Assembly: GCA_964016885.1 (NCBI GenBank)
Contig: CAXHJY010000124.1
Coordinates: 1 to 11,417 of the forward strand
Direction: 5' to 3'
Length of the DNA: 11,417 bases
Source: Eledone cirrhosa
Taxonomy: Eukaryota
Made by a program: the position numbers and the translations under genes. This document shows positions 1 through 10,395 of this stretch, piece by piece (the first letter of the stretch is position 1; each line of letters begins with the position of its first letter). Below the pieces are notes generated by a model, which saw nothing but the letters and a program-made list of their open reading frames with translations, searched no databases and was not told where the DNA came from.

Positions 1-1069
<1,069 letters not shown>

Positions 1070-1193
1070 TGAATATAGACATAGAATATTCGAAAATATT
1101 CTGTATGTTTATAATAAACATTTTGAAGACCTAATCGCTATAGAATAGAATACGTCACGTATTACAATTAGATTCTCGATAAAAGCAAGGGAA

Positions 1194-1236
1194 GTAATCT
1201 ACACGTTTCATTCTTGTTAGAAATCTTCAGGACTAC
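1194..1236 (-). ncRNA. Type I hammerhead ribozyme motif (first of 13 minus-strand copies, at 1194 + n x 310)
   Basis: Minus strand reads GUAGUC-CUGAAGA-U-UUCU-AACA-AGAA-U-GAAAC-GU-GUA^GAUUAC. Stem I is GUAGUC/GAUUAC, core boxes CUGANGA and GAAA are present, stem II is UUCU/AGAA, and the cleavage triplet is GUA (cut between 1200 and 1199). A perfect 16-bp helix (1172-1187/1245-1260) extends stem I. Confidence 0.88.
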
Positions 1237-4200
1237 ATATCCAGTGCTTTTATCGAGAATGACACAGCTAGAGACTTATAGAATACTTAGCTGTGTACAG
1301 GAACTGGTTTGAAAGAGCGGTTGCCGGTCCGGCAGAAATTAGAAATTGGAATAAATGCTCTGAAATAGCGATATATATGTGAATATAGACATAGAATATT
1401 CGAAAATATTCTGTATGTTTATAATAAACATTTTGAAGACCTAATCGCTATAGAATAGAATACGTCACGTATTACAATTAGATTCTCGATAAAAGCAAGG
1501 GAAGTAATCTACACGTTTCATTCTTGTTAGAAATCTTCAGGACTACATATCCAGTGCTTTTATCGAGAATGACACAGCTAGAGACTTATAGAATACTTAG
1601 CTGTGTACAGGAACTGGTTTGAAAGAGCGGTTGCCGGTCCGGCAGAAATTAGAAATTGGAATAAATGCTCTGAAATAGCGATATATATGTGAATATAGAC
1701 ATAGAATATTCGAAAATATTCTGTATGTTTATAATAAACATTTTGAAGACCTAATCGCTATAGAATAGAATACGTCACGTATTACAATTAGATTCTCGAT
1801 AAAAGCAAGGGAAGTAATCTACACGTTTCATTCTTGTTAGAAATCTTCAGGACTACATATCCAGTGCTTTTATCGAGAATGACACAGCTAGAGACTTATA
1901 GAATACTTAGCTCTGTACAGGAACTGGTTTGAAAGAGCGGTTGCCGGTCCGGCAGAAATTAGAAATTGGAATAAATGCTCTGAAATAGCGATATATATGT
2001 GAATATAGACATAGAATATTCGAAAATATTCTGTATGTTTATAATAAACATTTTGAAGACCTAATCGCTATAGAATAGAATACGTCACGTATTACAATTA
2101 GATTCTCGATAAAAGCAAGGGAAGTAATCTACACGTTTCATTCTTGTTAGAAATCTTCAGGACTACATATCCAGTGCTTTTATCGAGAATGACACAGCTA
2201 GAGACTTATAGAATACTTAGCTGTGTACAGGAACTGGTTTGAAAGAGCGGTTGCCGGTCCGGCAGAAATTAGAAATTGGAATAAATGCTCTGAAATAGCG
2301 ATATATATGTGAATATAGACATAGAATATTCGAAAATATTCTGTATGTTTATAATAAACATTTTGAAGACCTAATCGCTATAGAATAGAATACGTCACGT
2401 ATTACAATTAGATTCTCGATAAAAGCAAGGGAAGTAATCTACACGTTTCATTCTTGTTAGAAATCTTCAGGACTACATATCCAGTGCTTTTATCGAGAAT
2501 GACACAGCTAGAGACTTATAGAATACTTAGCTGTGTACAGGAACTGGTTTGAAAGAGCGGTTGCCGGTCCGGCAGAAATTAGAAATTGGAATAAATGCTC
2601 TGAAATAGCGATATATATGTGAATATAGACATAGAATATTCGAAAATATTCTGTATGTTTATAATAAACATTTTGAAGACCTAATCGCTATAGAATAGAA
2701 TACGTCACGTATTACAATTAGATTCTCGATAAAAGCAAGGGAAGTAATCTACACGTTTCATTCTTGTTAGAAATCTTCAGGACTACATATCCAGTGCTTT
2801 TATCGAGAATGACACAGCTAGAGACTTATAGAATACTTAGCTGTGTACAGGAACTGGTTTGAAAGAGCGGTTGCCGGTCCGGCAGAAATTAGAAATTGGA
2901 ATAAATGCTCTGAAATAGCGATATATATGTGAATATAGACATAGAATATTCGAAAATATTCTGTATGTTTATAATAAACATTTTGAAGACCTAATCGCTA
3001 TAGAATAGAATACGTCACGTATTACAATTAGATTCTCGATAAAAGCAAGGGAAGTAATCTACACGTTTCATTCTTGTTAGAAATCTTCAGGACTACATAT
3101 CCAGTGCTTTTATCGAGAATGACACAGCTAGAGACTTATAGAATACTTAGCTGTGTACAGGAACTGGTTTGAAAGAGCGGTTGCCGGTCCGGCAGAAATT
3201 AGAAATTGGAATAAATGCTCTGAAATAGCGATATATATGTGAATATAGACATAGAATATTCGAAAATATTCTGTATGTTTATAATAAACATTTTGAAGAC
3301 CTAATCGCTATAGAATAGAATACGTCACGTATTACAATTAGATTCTCGATAAAAGCAAGGGAAGTAATCTACACGTTTCATTCTTGTTAGAAATCTTCAG
3401 GACTACATATCCAGTGCTTTTATCGAGAATGACACAGCTAGAGACTTATAGAATACTTAGCTGTGTACAGGAACTGGTTTGAAAGAGCGGTTGCCGGTCC
3501 GGCAGAAATTAGAAATTGGAATAAATGCTCTGAAATAGCGATATATATGTGAATATAGACATAGAATATTCGAAAATATTCTGTATGTTTATAATAAACA
3601 TTTTGAAGACCTAATCGCTATAGAATAGAATACGTCACGTATTACAATTAGATTCTCGATAAAAGCAAGGGAAGTAATCTACACGTTTCATTCTTGTTAG
3701 AAATCTTCAGGACTACATATCCAGTGCTTTTATCGAGAATGACACAGCTAGAGACTTATAGAATACTTAGCTCTGTACAGGAACTGGTTTGAAAGAGCGG
3801 TTGCCGGTCCGGCAGAAATTAGAAATTGGAATAAATGCTCTGAAATAGCGATATATATGTGAATATAGACATAGAATATTCGAAAATATTCTGTATGTTT
3901 ATAATAAACATTTTGAAGACCTAATCGCTATAGAATAGAATACGTCACGTATTACAATTAGATTCTCGATAAAAGCAAGGGAAGTAATCTACACGTTTCA
4001 TTCTTGTTAGAAATCTTCAGGACTACATATCCAGTGCTTTTATCGAGAATGACACAGCTAGAGACTTATAGAATACTTAGCTGTGTACAGGAACTGGTTT
4101 GAAAGAGCGGTTGCCGGTCCGGCAGAAATTAGAAATTGGAATAAATGCTCTGAAATAGCGATATATATGTGAATATAGACATAGAATATTCGAAAATATT

Positions 4201-4913
4201 CTGTATGTTTATAATAAACATTTTGAAGACCTAATCGCTATAGAATAGAATACGTCACGTATTACAATTAGATTCTCGATAAAAGCAAGGGAAGTAATCT
4301 ACACGTTTCATTCTTGTTAGAAATCTTCAGGACTACATATCCAGTGCTTTTATCGAGAATGACACAGCTAGAGACTTATAGAATACTTAGCTGTGTACAG
4401 GAACTGGTTTGAAAGAGCGGTTGCCGGTCCGGCAGAAATTAGAAATTGGAATAAATGCTCTGAAATATCGATATATATGTGAATATAGACATAGAATATT
4501 CGAAAATATTCTGTATGTTTATAATAAACATTTTGAAGACCTAATCGCTATAGAATAGAATACGTCACGTATTACAATTAGATTCTCGATAAAAGCAAGG
4601 GAAGTAATCTACACGTTTCATTCTTGTTAGAAATCTTCAGGACTACATATCCAGTGCTTTTATCGAGAATGACACAGCTAGAGACTTATAGAATACTTAG
4701 CTGTGTACAGGAACTGGTTTGAAAGAGCGGTTGCCGGTCCGGCAGAAATTAGAAATTGGAATAAATGCTCTGAAATAGCGATATATATGTGAATATAGAC
4801 ATAGAATATTCGAAAATATTCTGTATGTTTATAATAAACATTTTGAAGACCTAATCGCTATAGAATAGAATACGTCACGTATTACAATTAGATTCTCGAT
4901 AAAAGCAAGGGAA

Positions 4914-4956
4914 GTAATCTACACGTTTCATTCTTGTTAGAAATCTTCAGGACTAC
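4914..4956 (-). ncRNA. Type I hammerhead ribozyme motif (13th and last minus-strand copy)
   Basis: Identical to 1194-1236. The intervening copies start at 1504, 1814, 2124, 2434, 2744, 3054, 3364, 3674, 3984, 4294 and 4604. Confidence 0.88.
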
Positions 4957-5216
4957 ATATCCAGTGCTTTTATCGAGAATGACACAGCTAGAGACTTATA
5001 GAATACTTAGCTGTGTACAGGAACTGGTTTGAAAGAGCGGTTGCCGGTCCGGCAGAAATTAGAAATTGGAATAAATGCTCTGAAATAGCGATATATATGT
5101 GAATATAGACATAGAATATTCGAAAATATTCTGTATGTTTATAATAAACATTTTGAAGACCTAATCGCTATAGAATAGAATACGTCACGTATTACAATTA
5201 GATTCTCGATAAAAGC

Positions 5217-5449
5217 ATTCTCGATAAAAGCACTGGATATGTAGTCCTGAAGATTTCTAACAAGAATGAAACGTGTAGATTACTTCCCTTGCTTTTATCG
5301 AGAATCTAATTGTAATACGTGACGTATTCTATTCTATAGCGATTAGGTCTTCAAAATGTTTATTATAAACATACAGAATATTTTCGAATATTCTATGTCT
5401 ATATTCACATATATATCGCTATTTCAGAGCATTTATTCCAATTTCTAAT
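5217..5449 (+). repeat. Inverted partial copy (233 bp) of the 310-bp unit
   Basis: 5217-5407 is the reverse complement of 1070-1260. 5408-5449 continues into the neighbouring unit sequence before (AT)n resumes. Confidence 0.97.
5241..5283 (+). ncRNA. Type I hammerhead ribozyme motif in the inverted copy
   Basis: GTAGTC 5241-5246, CTGAAGA 5247-5253, stem-loop II 5254-5267, GAAAC 5268-5272, GT, GTA 5275-5277 (cleavage after 5277), GATTAC 5278-5283. Confidence 0.88.
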
Positions 5450-6642
<1,193 letters not shown>

Positions 6643-6643
<1 letters not shown>

Positions 6644-8535
6644 CATCATCATCATCATCATCATCAACGTTTAACGTCCGTGTTCCACGCTTGCATGGGT
6701 TTGGACGGGGGTAGTCCCACTTGAGGCAAGAGTGATTGTCTTGCTCGCATAGGACTGTCTGGCAGGTTTTCTACAGTTGGATGCCCTTCCTAACACCAAC
6801 CACATTTACAGTGTGGGTCTGGGAGGTTTTTACCGTGTTGCCTACACGGCCACATTACAGCGTGGACTGTGTGTTTTTTTGTCGTGACACCTACACGATC
6901 TCATTTGTTTCGGCCTCGATGGCGCGGCACCAACATAACTTTACATAGAACGGGGTGGTGTGGATCGGGTGGGGGTGGGGGTGGTGGGACGGGGTGTATT
7001 TTGTTAGAGATGCCTACTGGCTGGAGTAGGTTTTACTATATATTTAGGTAAGGCGGGTCTTCTCTGTTACTGAGTACCGCCAAAGGTCTCGGTCCAGTGA
7101 CATTGTCTTGGAGAGGTGTAAGTGTGTGATGTCGGAGTTTATCAGCTCGTCCCAGGTTTTTCTAGGTCTGCCTATTCCGTGACTACCGTCTATCTTTATT
7201 GCCCTGCACTTTGTTATACAGCTATCGACTTTCATGCGCATCACGTGTCCATACCAACGTAGCCTTCTCTCGAGTAAACAACATCTGATCCCTCTTATCT
7301 CTAATTTATTCCTTAGTTCGTTTATGCTTTGCCGTTCACGTATATTACTGTTACACATCCAGCGGAGCATGCAAGCTTCGTTCCTCTCTAGTCTGCGTAT
7401 ATCCTCTGCACACAATGCCCAGGTCTCACTGCCATGCAGCATTGCTGCTCGTATGCAGGCATCGTACAACCTGCCTTTCATTTTTAGTGAGAACCCTTTA
7501 GCAGCTAATAGTGGTATAAGCTCTCTGAACTTTTTCCAACCAGTTCTGACTCTAGCTACAGTACTTTCAGAGCACCCTCCCCCACTGCTGATTTTATCGC
7601 CCAGGTAACGGAAGCTGTCCACTATTTCTATAGAACCCTCTGCGCAATTGAAAGAGCTAGTAGTTTGTGGGCACTTGCTGCTACTTATTGCACCAGAGCA
7701 CCGGCCACATGTAAAATCTATGTTCTTAGTTAGCTTACCTGTGATCCCACTACATCTTTTATGCACCCATACTTTGCATTTAGGACATAAAATGGAGTTT
7801 CTACCTACGCCTTTCCTACACACCGAGCACGACCATTTCCCAGAAGGGACCGCCGCCTTGTTTTCTTTCCTACAAACTAGTACTTTGGTCTTAGCCAGGT
7901 TAGTTTTAAGTCCTTTTGACTCTAGGCCGTGCTTCCATGTTTGGAATTTCTTCTCTAGCTCGGCCATTGATTCCGCTATGAGTGTCAGGTCGTCTGCGTA
8001 TAGGAGTTCCCATGGGCAGCCTGTCTTGAACTCCTCTGTTATAGCCTGAAGGGCAATAATAAATAGTAGTGGACTGAGAACAGAGCCCTGATGGACGCCG
8101 ACTTTTACGCTAAACTCTTCACTATATTCGTTGTTAATTCTAACCTTGCTGACTGTTTCTTTATACATGGCTTGTATAGCCCTCACAAGCCATTCGTCAA
8201 CGCCTAGTTTTCTAAGAGCCCACCAGATAATGGAGCGGGGGACTCTGTCGAAGGCTTTCTCCAAGTCGACAAAAGCTAAGTAGAGGGGTTTACCTTTAGC
8301 TAGGTACTTCTCCTGTAGTTGTCGTACTATGAAAAGAGCGTCTGTGGTACTTTTGCCTGACACAAACCCGAACTGCATTTCATCTAGGTCAATTCTCTCT
8401 CTGATTAGTTGCGCTATTACTCTTTCCGTGACCTTCATGACCTGGTCGATTAATTTAATGCCTCTATAGTTACTCCTATCTAGGGCGTCTCCTTTACCCT
8501 TATAACAGTTAACGATGATGCTGCTATGCCAGTCC
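6643..8535 (-). mobile_element. 5'-truncated RTE-clade non-LTR retrotransposon (RT + C-terminal domain + 3' UTR + (TGA)8 tail)
   Basis: RT ORF at 7044-8537, 3' UTR at 6667-7043, and (TCA)8 at 6643-6666 is the minus-strand (TGA)n tail. (AT)n lies on both sides. The C-terminal [11 protein letters not shown]...GRPRKTW motifs are typical of RTE. Confidence 0.93.
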
Positions 8536-8536
8536 A

Positions 8537-8537
<1 letters not shown>
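7044..8537 (-). CDS. LINE reverse transcriptase, N-terminally truncated (no APE endonuclease), with internal PHD finger; 497 aa from the junction ATG
   Basis: Motifs [51 protein letters not shown] (7989-8000), FRYLG. There is no stop until TAA at 7044-7046. The ORF-track extension to 8741 is microsatellite. Confidence 0.9.
7698..7829 (-). other. PHD-type (C4HC3) zinc finger coded inside the RT domain
   Basis: CSVC-x10-CPKC-x4-HKRC-x14-CGRC, lying between the KTKVL and FRYLG RT motifs. Confidence 0.85.
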
Positions 8538-8586
<49 letters not shown>

Positions 8587-8725
8587 CACATATATATACA
8601 CATATACATATATATATATACACATATATATACACATATATATATACATATATATACATACATATATATACATATATATACATATACATACATATATATA
8701 TACATATATATACATATATATATAC

Positions 8726-8797
<72 letters not shown>
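8536..8797. repeat. (AT)n/(AC) microsatellite separating the two LINE fragments
   Basis: Direct reading. Confidence 0.99.
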
Positions 8798-8801
<4 letters not shown>

Positions 8802-9268
8802 GCTTCTCCCTCAGAATGAAAGGCAGACTGTATGATGCGTGTATCCGAACAGCGATGTTGCATGGTAGTGAGACCTGGGCGCTGAAGGTGGAAGACTTAC
8901 GTAGATTAGAGAGAAACGAAGCCTGCATGCTCCAGTGGATGTGTACACGTAGTAATATACGCGAACGACAAAGCATAAATGAATTGAGAGAGAGACTGAG
9001 CATAAGAGGAATCAAATGCTGCGTGCAGGAGAGGCGGTTACGCTGGTATGGACATGTGATGCGTATGAAGGATGACAGCTGCATAAAAAGGTGCAGAGCA
9101 CTAGAAGTTGATGGAAACCGCGGAGTGGGGAGACCCAAGATGACTTGGGATGAGGTGATAAAAGCCGACCTTACCCAACTACACCTCTCAAAGTCAATGA
9201 CACACGACCGTGACTTCTGGCGTCACGCAGTAATACAGGGTACCCGACCTCCCATGGGTACATGCTGA
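8798..9268 (+). pseudogene. C-terminal fragment of RTE ORF (post-RT region)
   Basis: The frame is open from the truncation point to TGA at 9266-9268 and contains [19 protein letters not shown] and GRPKMTW. It lacks the RT catalytic core. Confidence 0.88.
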
Positions 9269-9571
9269 AGCATATAAACAATATGCCCCCCCCCCCCACC
9301 GCAAGGTGGTCGTGGAGGTGCCACGGCAAAAAAGCACCCAGCCCACACTGTAAAGTGGACGTGTAGGCGCCACGAAAAAGCACCCAGCACTCACTGTAAA
9401 TGAGGTTGGTGTTAGGAAGGGCATCCAGCTGTAGAAATCAAGCCAGATCAGTTCCTGTATGAGCAAGGCATGGTCAGCCGACCAGACACTGCCCACAACA
9501 GGACAACCCGTCTAACCCATGCTAGCGTGGAAGAACGGACGTAAAACGGTGATGATGATGATGATGATGAT
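8798..9571 (+). mobile_element. Heavily 5'-truncated RTE-clade LINE of a related subfamily (C-terminal coding part, 3' UTR, (TGA)7 tail)
   Basis: The translation [17 protein letters not shown]... aligns with the C-terminus of the minus-strand ORF. The 3' UTRs share motifs (GGTTGGTGTTAGGAAGGGCATCCA; ACCCATGC..GCGTGGAA..ACGGACGT). The tail is at 9550-9570. Confidence 0.93.
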
Positions 9572-9788
9572 ATAAGTATGTGTATTTTGTATTATCTAGT
9601 GATATACAGTAGGTTTACGAATAAACATTTTGAAAGCCTTCAACTATGAATTTGGTAGCTGATGACATAATGCCATCTAGCAGAAGCAAAGGTTGAGTAA
9701 CTGACAACGCCATTTCTGACTCAGGTCATTATCAAGACAGTGCTCCCTTACCATGCTCTTTGCTAGAACTCAATATAGGCAAAAATAT

Positions 9789-9849
9789 ATAGTTTTGACA
9801 CCTATGTACATGAGGCTAATCAGCCCATGTACACAGGTGTCAAAACTAT
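9789..9849. repeat. Near-perfect inverted repeat (27 bp paired, 4-nt loop)
   Basis: ATAGTTTTGACACCT-a-TGTACATG-a-GGCT [AATC] AGCC-CATGTACA-c-AGGTGTCAAAACTAT. Confidence 0.92.
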
Positions 9850-10087
9850 TTGCAGTATTAACATAAAGACTTCAATTTTATATGTTCTGGCTCTGGGGTT
9901 GATGCAGTACAAAGTGTTAAGAATTAAGAATTAGCCTGATCTGTGAGAACCTGTCCAACAATTACTAGCAGGGGAAAATGGGCATTAAATGCTGATACAA
10001 ATTAAAACACAAAATTGTCATTTAAATGGTAACAATACAATGTAAAAAGGACTCTTCAGTCATGTTGAAGGTGAGATAGCCTCTTTA

Positions 10088-10170
10088 GTGTTGATGCCAT
10101 AATAAGTGCACCCAGTACACTCTGCAAAGTGGTTGGTGTTAGGAAGCATCCAGCCATAGACATCATGCCA
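10088..10170 (+). mobile_element. Degraded SINE/RTE-3'-UTR-related fragment
   Basis: GCACCCAGTACACTCTGCAAAGTGGTTGGTGTTAGGAAGCATCCAGCCATAGA matches 9380-9435. A second partial copy (TGCACCCAGTA) lies at 10243-10253. Confidence 0.7.
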
Positions 10171-10270
10171 AAAAGATTAAAGAGGACCTTTCAGTTATGT
10201 GAAGAACAAGACAAATTCTTTAGAGCTGCTGTCACAATAAAATGCACCCAGTATATGGGATGATAGTTCA

Positions 10271-10395
10271 AGTGTAGGGGGTAGTCAGATGGGAGTGTAT
10301 GGGGTAGTTTGTGTGAGGAGGGAGTGTATGGGGTAGTTTGACTGAGAAGGGAGTGTAAAGAATAGTTTCTTTGAGGTGGGAGTGTAGGGTGTAGA
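10271..10395. repeat. Degenerate G-rich minisatellite with a period of about 29 bp
   Basis: GGGAGTGTATGGGGTAGTTTG is exact at 10291-10311 and 10320-10340. AGTGTA-containing degenerate copies lie on both sides. Confidence 0.75.

Follow-up and report, generated by a model that had tools for sequence, protein, structure and literature searches.

Why should a tandem array of short non-coding units stop at one arm of a helix, restart in the opposite orientation from the other arm, and extend further at one end than at the other? The question is raised by a stretch of 11,417 nt (the window), which is one entire contig; the assembly searched comprises 3.0 Gb. The long arm of the array (1070-5217, RNA sense on the minus strand, delimited by array analysis and alignment) consists of 13.4 tandem units of 310 bp, with 3 substitutions over its whole length. 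Its outer end lies at monomer position 130 (site A below; position 1 is the first base past the predicted ribozyme cleavage site), and its inner end at 13-15. The short arm (5217-5449, 233 bp, RNA sense on the plus strand) is an exact inverted copy that covers monomer 250-310 and then 1-172. At the inner junction (5202-5232, plus strand), the 16-mer ATTCTCGATAAAAGCA is present at 5202-5217 and again at 5217-5232, i.e. the helix arm occurs twice in tandem with a 1-nt overlap at 5217. Monomer 13 is thereby connected to monomer 250 with an overlap of 1-2 nt; an exact match to this junction occurs only once in the assembly, and the strand switch can be placed anywhere in the 2-nt overlap 5216-5217. 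The "left arm" of the first-pass annotation, which was read on the plus strand, is the 3' helix arm in the RNA sense (monomer 13-28), and the inverted copy begins at the 5' helix arm (monomer 250-265). In the assembled sequence, this arrangement is exact to the nucleotide, and so are the 191-bp terminal inverted repeats (1070-1260/5217-5407). The annotated 42-nt extension (5408-5449) is also exact; it becomes 40-42 nt once bases common to the flank are counted, and the flanking microsatellite also fits 1-2 nt at each outer end.

The flanks belong to the same compound (AT)n/(ATAC) microsatellite, the target tract, and have the same orientation. The plus strand contains 64 C versus 1 G on the left (1-1069) and 75 C versus 3 G on the right (5450-6641). 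The right flank starts with an apparent direct repeat of 14-16 bp of the left-flank end, which is inseparable from the microsatellite (suffix and prefix match over 14-16 or 28-30 nt). A search for an empty allele with flank 9580-10290 scored 40 candidates, none of which is a second match over the full length. Further to the right, non-LTR retrotransposon fragments (RVT_1, E 7.7e-32, and a PHD-like finger) lie in opposite orientation at 7047-8531 (minus strand) and 8799-9265 (plus strand). They flank an (AT)n tract (8536-8798) and terminate in (CAT)n tracts (6642-6666 and ~9550-9572).

As judged from its sequence, the 310-bp unit is a non-LTR retrozyme, non-coding and with a predicted hammerhead. 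It resembles the animal non-LTR retrozymes (Cervera and de la Pena 2020, PMC7229834) in its tandem arrangement, its length (310 bp, against a range of 150-450 bp), its low GC content of 33.9%, the lack of LTR-type coding sequence (the longest ATG ORF has 30 aa) and its occurrence in dispersed multicopy arrays. As in these elements, each unit contains a type I hammerhead motif, here predicted from core and stems. On the RNA-sense strand, stem I is formed by monomer 274-279 with 1-6, the core CTGAAGA occupies 280-286, and stem II, GAAAC and a 2-bp stem III follow, with cleavage predicted after 310. The motif lies within a perfect 16-bp helix, in which 250-265 pairs with 13-28. As in an axolotl motif (PMC7229834), stem III is weak and stem II has a U-U pair at its base. 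In the short arm, the predicted minimal hammerhead, read from motif and fold, spans 5241-5283 on the plus strand (stem I GTAGTC/GATTAC, core CTGAAGA...GAAAC, 2-bp stem III), with predicted cleavage between 5277 and 5278. The 3' side of stem I and the 3' helix arm TGCTTTTATCGAGAAT (5290-5305) are located in 5278-5305 by folding. In the long arm, one full predicted domain occupies 4905-4996 on the minus strand, with helix arms at 4965-4980 and 4892-4907, and recurs every 310 bp.

An Rfam scan (E<=1) returned microsatellite-driven miRNA matches and no hammerhead match, and the assignment therefore rests on the motif and the pattern of variation. None of the 23 variants fixed in arrays falls into the invariant hammerhead core, and the four at paired hammerhead positions all retain or restore pairing. 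The commonest fixed variant, 284T, is located at the free N7 position. A rare 307T base, seen in the variant pattern at 5274 (plus strand), lies within the predicted hammerhead. An exact 32-mer search of the genome gave 8,293 matches, 8,269 with 307C and 24 with 307T, of which 14 are in the window and 6 at locus L031. 307C makes loop III a perfect palindrome, and the predicted dimer pairing of typed 11-mers falls from -9.5 to -3.9 kcal/mol with 307T. L031 (G000:C5:72563762-72565857) is the sole other array with 307T in every unit, and the inner end of one arm, at monomer 14, lies inside the 13-15 of the window, with different flanks and a different partner end. This likeness may reflect a shared source or chance.

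The anatomy of the window is typical of its family. In addition to the window, 130 other loci were read in three samples. Sample 1 comprised 50 loci from the best matches to the window unit, and therefore favours haplotypes like that of the window. Samples 2 and 3 comprised the first 40 and the next 40 site-B junctions (see below) on C1 in order, with 4 already-read loci skipped. Genome-wide, there are 1,051 exact site-B junctions. Two arms were found at 115 of the 130 loci and a single arm at 10; the remaining 5 could not be resolved (one complex, two at N gaps, two with an arm over 8 kb). An inverted 5'-truncated copy, the footprint of Penelope-like elements (PLEs), is thus present in 115 of 125 resolved other loci, in agreement with the first-pass expectation of inverted ends. 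The RNA 3' ends face outward in all two-armed loci. Of 80 site-B flanks, 75 are all A/T over 12 nt, of which 6 nt had been part of the selection, and a candidate target-site duplication, with a match beyond pure TA (10-60 nt), was seen in only 8 of 72 loci.

These copies bear on the possibility that the junction is an artefact of assembly or of a fold-back read. The window is a whole unplaced contig of 11,417 bp, and its junction is bridged by no contig among the 24 of ~390 pieces listed for sequencing runs X1, X5, X6 and X7. However, these runs may stem from another individual, and the short-read contigs of X1 show 11 like joints at other unit positions. Moreover, the same architecture is found at 115 chromosomal loci, the window ends at the two family sites, its flanks are colinear rather than mirrored (C-rich plus strand on both sides), and the junction is not a symmetric palindrome. 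We therefore regard an artefact as very remote.

The unit was also seen in other sequencing runs. It occurs at 65-84% of words in runs X1-X20, which carry 18 organism codes, with very high depth in X1, X5 and X6 (one sample) and as a single low-depth contig in X7 and X17. In X23 and X24, raw Hi-C runs of another organism with unit words, 0 reads matched. Horizontal transfer, as the many organism labels might suggest, was not accepted; from the runs examined in detail, trace contamination looks likelier. The listed runs with the unit include no RNA run.

The outer ends of the arms follow a strict rule. Site A spans monomer 127-139, about 130 nt past the predicted cleavage, and site B spans 161-172, with a family mode of 165. 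One arm starts at A and the other at B in 113 of 114 scorable insertions, the window included. This combination holds for 41 of the 43 two-armed loci in sample 1 and the window taken together; of the exceptions, one runs into an N gap at one end, and the other (L047) ends at 74, at neither site. The 41 loci were chosen regardless of their ends, and contain 0 A/A and 0 B/B pairs (p 4.5e-13 for independent 50:50 choice). Samples 2 and 3 were selected on site B and are thus blind to A/A pairs; in these, the partner end is at A in 36/36 and 36/36 loci, with one more not reached. Seven ends of sample 2 were scored at 118-126, where exact matching halts at haplotype variants; the flanks run on to ~130. 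Ends that recur at two fixed positions, as the first-pass annotation had proposed to look for, are thus borne out. The orientation is free (A left in 23, B left in 19 loci), and either site may carry the longer arm.

The extension of the window has to be seen in this light. It was originally described as an inverted pseudo-LTR that runs on past its counterpart. The second arm varies in length from 19 bp to over 7 kb, and is therefore not a short inverted pseudo-LTR. Since it often comprises several kb, the tail more plausibly represents the distance that separates two priming sites. In the window, this is the exactly matching stretch 5408-5449 (plus strand), from monomer 130 to 170-172, and over 41 loci the gap has a median of 35 nt (range 22-44). 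Site A adjoins an AU tract of 8 nt that is internal to the unit (ATATATAT, monomer 132-139; the site A end of the window is at 1070-1080, minus strand). This tract could pair with a (TA)n primer, for which site B offers 2 nt.

Do the two arms stem from one template? Arm haplotypes were compared wherever each arm had two or more full units, which was the case at 42 loci. Both arms share the same fixed variants at 40 of these (shuffled mean 6.5, maximum 16), and in samples 2 and 3 only, the haplotypes are identical in 28 of 30 loci, which represent 14 haplotypes. Several haplotypes are known from one locus only, and yet fill all units of both arms (L194, L196, L186). At one exception, L153, the haplotype differs over most of one arm. 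At the other, L180 (G000:C1:136.72 Mb), both arms begin alike, and one arm switches after two units to a haplotype that is kept for 15; this is possibly due to a jump of the reverse transcriptase between templates. In the simplest reading, one RNA served both arms. That it was a circle would fit the uniform multimers over 8 kb and the model for animal retrozymes (PMC7229834). Variants also recur periodically inside single arms at 7 loci, including the window (217G, six units apart), which suggests later duplication or multimeric templates. They count against the explanation that we consider best, to the extent that a monomer circle alone is insufficient.

The same data speak to two other accounts. 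Growth of a satellite by unequal crossing-over from a lone pseudo-LTR, followed by inversion, is one such account; the origin of arrays is discussed in bioRxiv 10.64898/2026.07.22.740005. The periodic variants within single arms suggest that some duplication did occur after insertion. This account predicts neither the fixed A/B ends nor the opposed arms, nor private variants fixed in all units of both arms, and we give it almost no credence. The other account holds that a single target-primed cDNA folds back, or that the reverse transcriptase switches to its own product, and that an endonuclease resolves the second end at the other site. A fold-back would explain identical haplotypes equally well, which counts against a reading with two cDNAs; at L143, L087 and L153, a non-fixed variant is even common to the inner units of both arms, and the tail of PLEs has been ascribed to endonuclease-mediated resolution (PMC8557442). 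Yet either site may carry the longer arm (the A arm in 18 of 41 loci), so that the cut would have to fall at whichever site was not used first. No correlation is seen between the lengths of the two arms (rho 0.19, p 0.24), at L153 the haplotypes disagree along most of the arms, and in vitro, both target strands are extended from RNA (PMC11167929). Taken together, a fold-back appears unlikely. We quite confidently prefer two cDNAs, one primed from each strand of the cut target by a PLE-like RT/GIY-YIG enzyme acting in trans.

What, then, is the role of the helix at the junction? It had been suggested that the hairpin guided the template switch or the joining of two cDNAs, and clustering of inversion points on it had been proposed as a check. 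Among 115 other loci, 34 of 230 inner ends fall on the helix arms, compared to 23.7 expected (1.4-fold, p 0.021), and 196 are elsewhere. By sample, the counts on arms are 7/84 (8.7 expected), 16/72 and 11/74 (7.6 expected). For sample 3, the test was set beforehand, and gave p 0.14 on the arms and p 0.056 at the edges. At the edges (13+-1 or 250+-1), the pooled excess is 2.7-fold (12/230 versus 4.45 expected, p 0.002). These values derive from hand-entered positions, four of them corrected for haplotype variants, and the null distribution is uniform, without regard to base composition. For inner ends, the 3-nt interval at 13 is among the top 3 of 310 intervals; the 16-nt interval at 250 is ordinary, as 33% of intervals reach its level. 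An equally high peak (8/230 in 3 nt) is present at 82-84, away from the helix; post hoc, this was seen to sit on a short AT-rich inverted repeat, monomer 79-95 (minus-strand equivalent 1666-1682 in the window). Clustering of inner ends at the predicted cleavage site was considered and rejected, with 5/84 ends within monomer 1-20 versus 5.4 expected. Both inner ends are on arms at only one of 115 loci, L135, where 13 is joined to 250 and just one arm copy is present.

The slight excess on the arms and at their edges, together with L135 and the window itself, where both ends are at helix edges, thus speaks weakly for some involvement of the hairpin; the idea that it guides the switch or join does not hold as a rule. 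The helix is at most a minor joining hotspot, and was rejected as a general switch point. That it generally directs the strand switch or the cDNA join, as first proposed, we consider highly improbable in view of the ends off the arms, the single arm-to-arm case, the counts of samples 1 and 3, the equal peak elsewhere and the unremarkable interval at 250. For the window itself, the arms may plausibly have annealed through the helix and been trimmed at its edges, after which they were joined end to end or slipped by 15 nt; chance is about equally likely. A join of annealed helix arms would leave one arm copy, as in L135, and the window has two. In general, the inner joins have other properties: the mean overlap of the 85 joins without insertion is 2.2 nt, versus 0.76 nt in random joins; insertions, some copied from nearby, are present in 30 of 115 joins. 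Short microhomology and insertions at joins are the pattern of alternative end joining, which the inner joins resemble.

The enzymes that could have acted in trans were sought in the same genome. GIY-YIG matches gave 10,595 candidates, of which 150 were scored. Of four ORFs subjected to Pfam analysis, three contain RVT_1 and GIY-YIG, and the fourth RVT_1 only. The L110 ORF has a CxxC linker ahead of the nuclease, a linker type described for Neptune and Nematis (PMC8557442). Two-armed insertions of two RT + GIY-YIG families (L115, L119, L124) have one end site per arm, ~50-60 nt apart, in (TA)n, and the far site of the L115 family terminates in TTTCTAAT, as does that of the window. RT + GIY-YIG elements with the same end architecture are thus present in the genome; an autonomous element that shares the hammerhead or the termini, which the first-pass annotation had proposed to look for, was not found among 40 loci. 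The comparison of the unit with the pLTRs of these 40 GIY-YIG loci (20 x 3.3 kb and 20 x 9.9 kb out of 10,595 candidates, blastn word 7) gave no match, and the matches that were found there are sister non-coding repeats. The inverted ends, the two recurrent outer ends and the RT + GIY-YIG elements that end alike argue that PLE-type machinery very probably acted in trans, as had been suggested. The unit has no ORF for RT and GIY-YIG, as an autonomous EN+ PLE would; it works like a PLE passenger and is not itself a PLE.

In the sister repeats of L091 and L110, monomer 59-215 is shared at 75-82% identity, which makes this segment a candidate protein-binding site. Both sister families retain a long enclosing helix of different sequence. 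Sister repeats with monomer 59-215 were seen at L091:2449-2864, L110:332-705, L125:9008-9103, L135, L168 and L189; their hammerhead and helix sequences differ from those of the unit, and L091 has two arms, which end at positions equivalent to B and A. L110, L111, L115, L119 and L121 form a young RT + GIY-YIG family, 96-98% identical. Its pseudo-LTR folds into a hammerhead-like structure in which the core (TTGAAAA) is non-canonical and loop III palindromic. A tandem repeat of ~490-510 bp at L120:8068-9553 has a canonical-looking type I hammerhead, and a short palindromic repeat beside PLE ends (L119:7695-7938, L115:879-1023) has the core CTGATGA...GAAAC and a stem II that resembles that of the unit's hammerhead.

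The insertions can be accommodated in the following scheme. Array transcripts would self-cleave and be ligated into 310-nt circles. A PLE dimer would bind ~60-215 nt past the cleavage site and nick both (TA)n strands. As the observed end positions suggest, one strand would then prime at A (130-139) and the other at B (~165), and the gap between the two would become the tail. Both cDNAs would copy the same RNA over 0.1 to more than 25 unit lengths, in keeping with the haplotype identity of the arms, and their 3' ends would be connected at largely arbitrary positions by microhomology-type end joining, the pathway suggested by the features of the joins. The helix might occasionally seed a join, because it is the longest complementarity between two same-sense cDNAs. 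In the window, both ends are at helix edges and may have been joined end to end, or may have annealed and then slipped by 15 nt. The scheme draws on the green anole PLE, a predicted dimer that in vitro cleaves both target strands, extends them, and starts reverse transcription at two internal sites with the gap as tail (Frangieh et al. 2024, PMC11167929). In the same assay, the start site is independent of the strand and ribozyme cleavage is dispensable, which argues against the scheme. It is conceivable, at somewhat less than even probability, that the two RT heads of one PLE dimer load ~35 nt apart on one 310-nt circle and roll together. If so, each head would displace the cDNA of the other until the products are end-joined, the tail would be the spacing of the RT heads, and the inverted pseudo-LTR would be the second primed cDNA.

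Two primed cDNAs are also the basis of L1 twin priming, in which two target strands prime one RNA and the inverted join has microhomology. There, the second primer is at variable internal sites and the cDNAs cover different parts of the RNA. In contrast, both sites are fixed here, and the same unit is copied repeatedly into each cDNA.

Inverted copies and an often one-ended tail of PLEs, retrozymes, and their proposed dependence on PLEs are already known. With EN+ PLEs of the Neptune/Nematis type (CX2-5CxxC linker), the insertions share the inverted 5'-truncated copy, a tail of 30-40 bp that is often found at one end only, (TA)n targets and a hammerhead in the repeat (Craig et al. 2021, PMC8557442). 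They differ from them in that the unit has no ORF, each arm consists of multiple copies of one small unit, and the restriction of the tail to one end is near-absolute (113/114). Like PAc, the Poseidon element of the green anole studied in vitro, the family has an AT-rich target, two internal RT starts downstream of the hammerhead as read from its ends, a tail that equals the gap, and probable cutting and extension of both strands (PMC11167929). PAc is described in that account without strand preference of the start and without priming homology, whereas each insertion here uses each site once, and the AU tract of 8 nt beside site A has a match to the target. For animal non-LTR retrozymes, tandem cDNA synthesis from circles by a PLE or LINE RT has been proposed; inverted arms, a tail or a fixed pair of start sites were not found in the main text of that report (PMC7229834). 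Xenopus retrozymes have been regarded as non-autonomous PLE derivatives from co-occurrence and pLTR homology (bioRxiv 10.64898/2026.07.22.740005). PLE dependence is proposed in both cases; the evidence here is insertion anatomy, and not pLTR homology as in Xenopus, which was not found in 40 loci. The word "tail" is absent from the main text of the Xenopus report. Searches of the openly readable literature found no description of a two-arm, paired-site retrozyme anatomy. What is new, and can be put to the test, is the strict A/B pairing on a single template.

The origin of the inverted ends and the one-sided tail of PLEs has been stated as an open question (PMC8557442), and the enzyme that moves animal retrozymes has been proposed (PMC7229834; bioRxiv 10.64898/2026.07.22.740005). 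In the family described here, a single short template has left more than 1,000 young insertions. The retrozyme thus displays the footprint of a PLE, with each start site almost without exception used once and one haplotype per arm pair; the helix at the junction, which first drew attention to the window, is a side effect. The A/B rule and the haplotype identity provide quantitative constraints for the existing in vitro PLE assay, with a 310-nt RNA.
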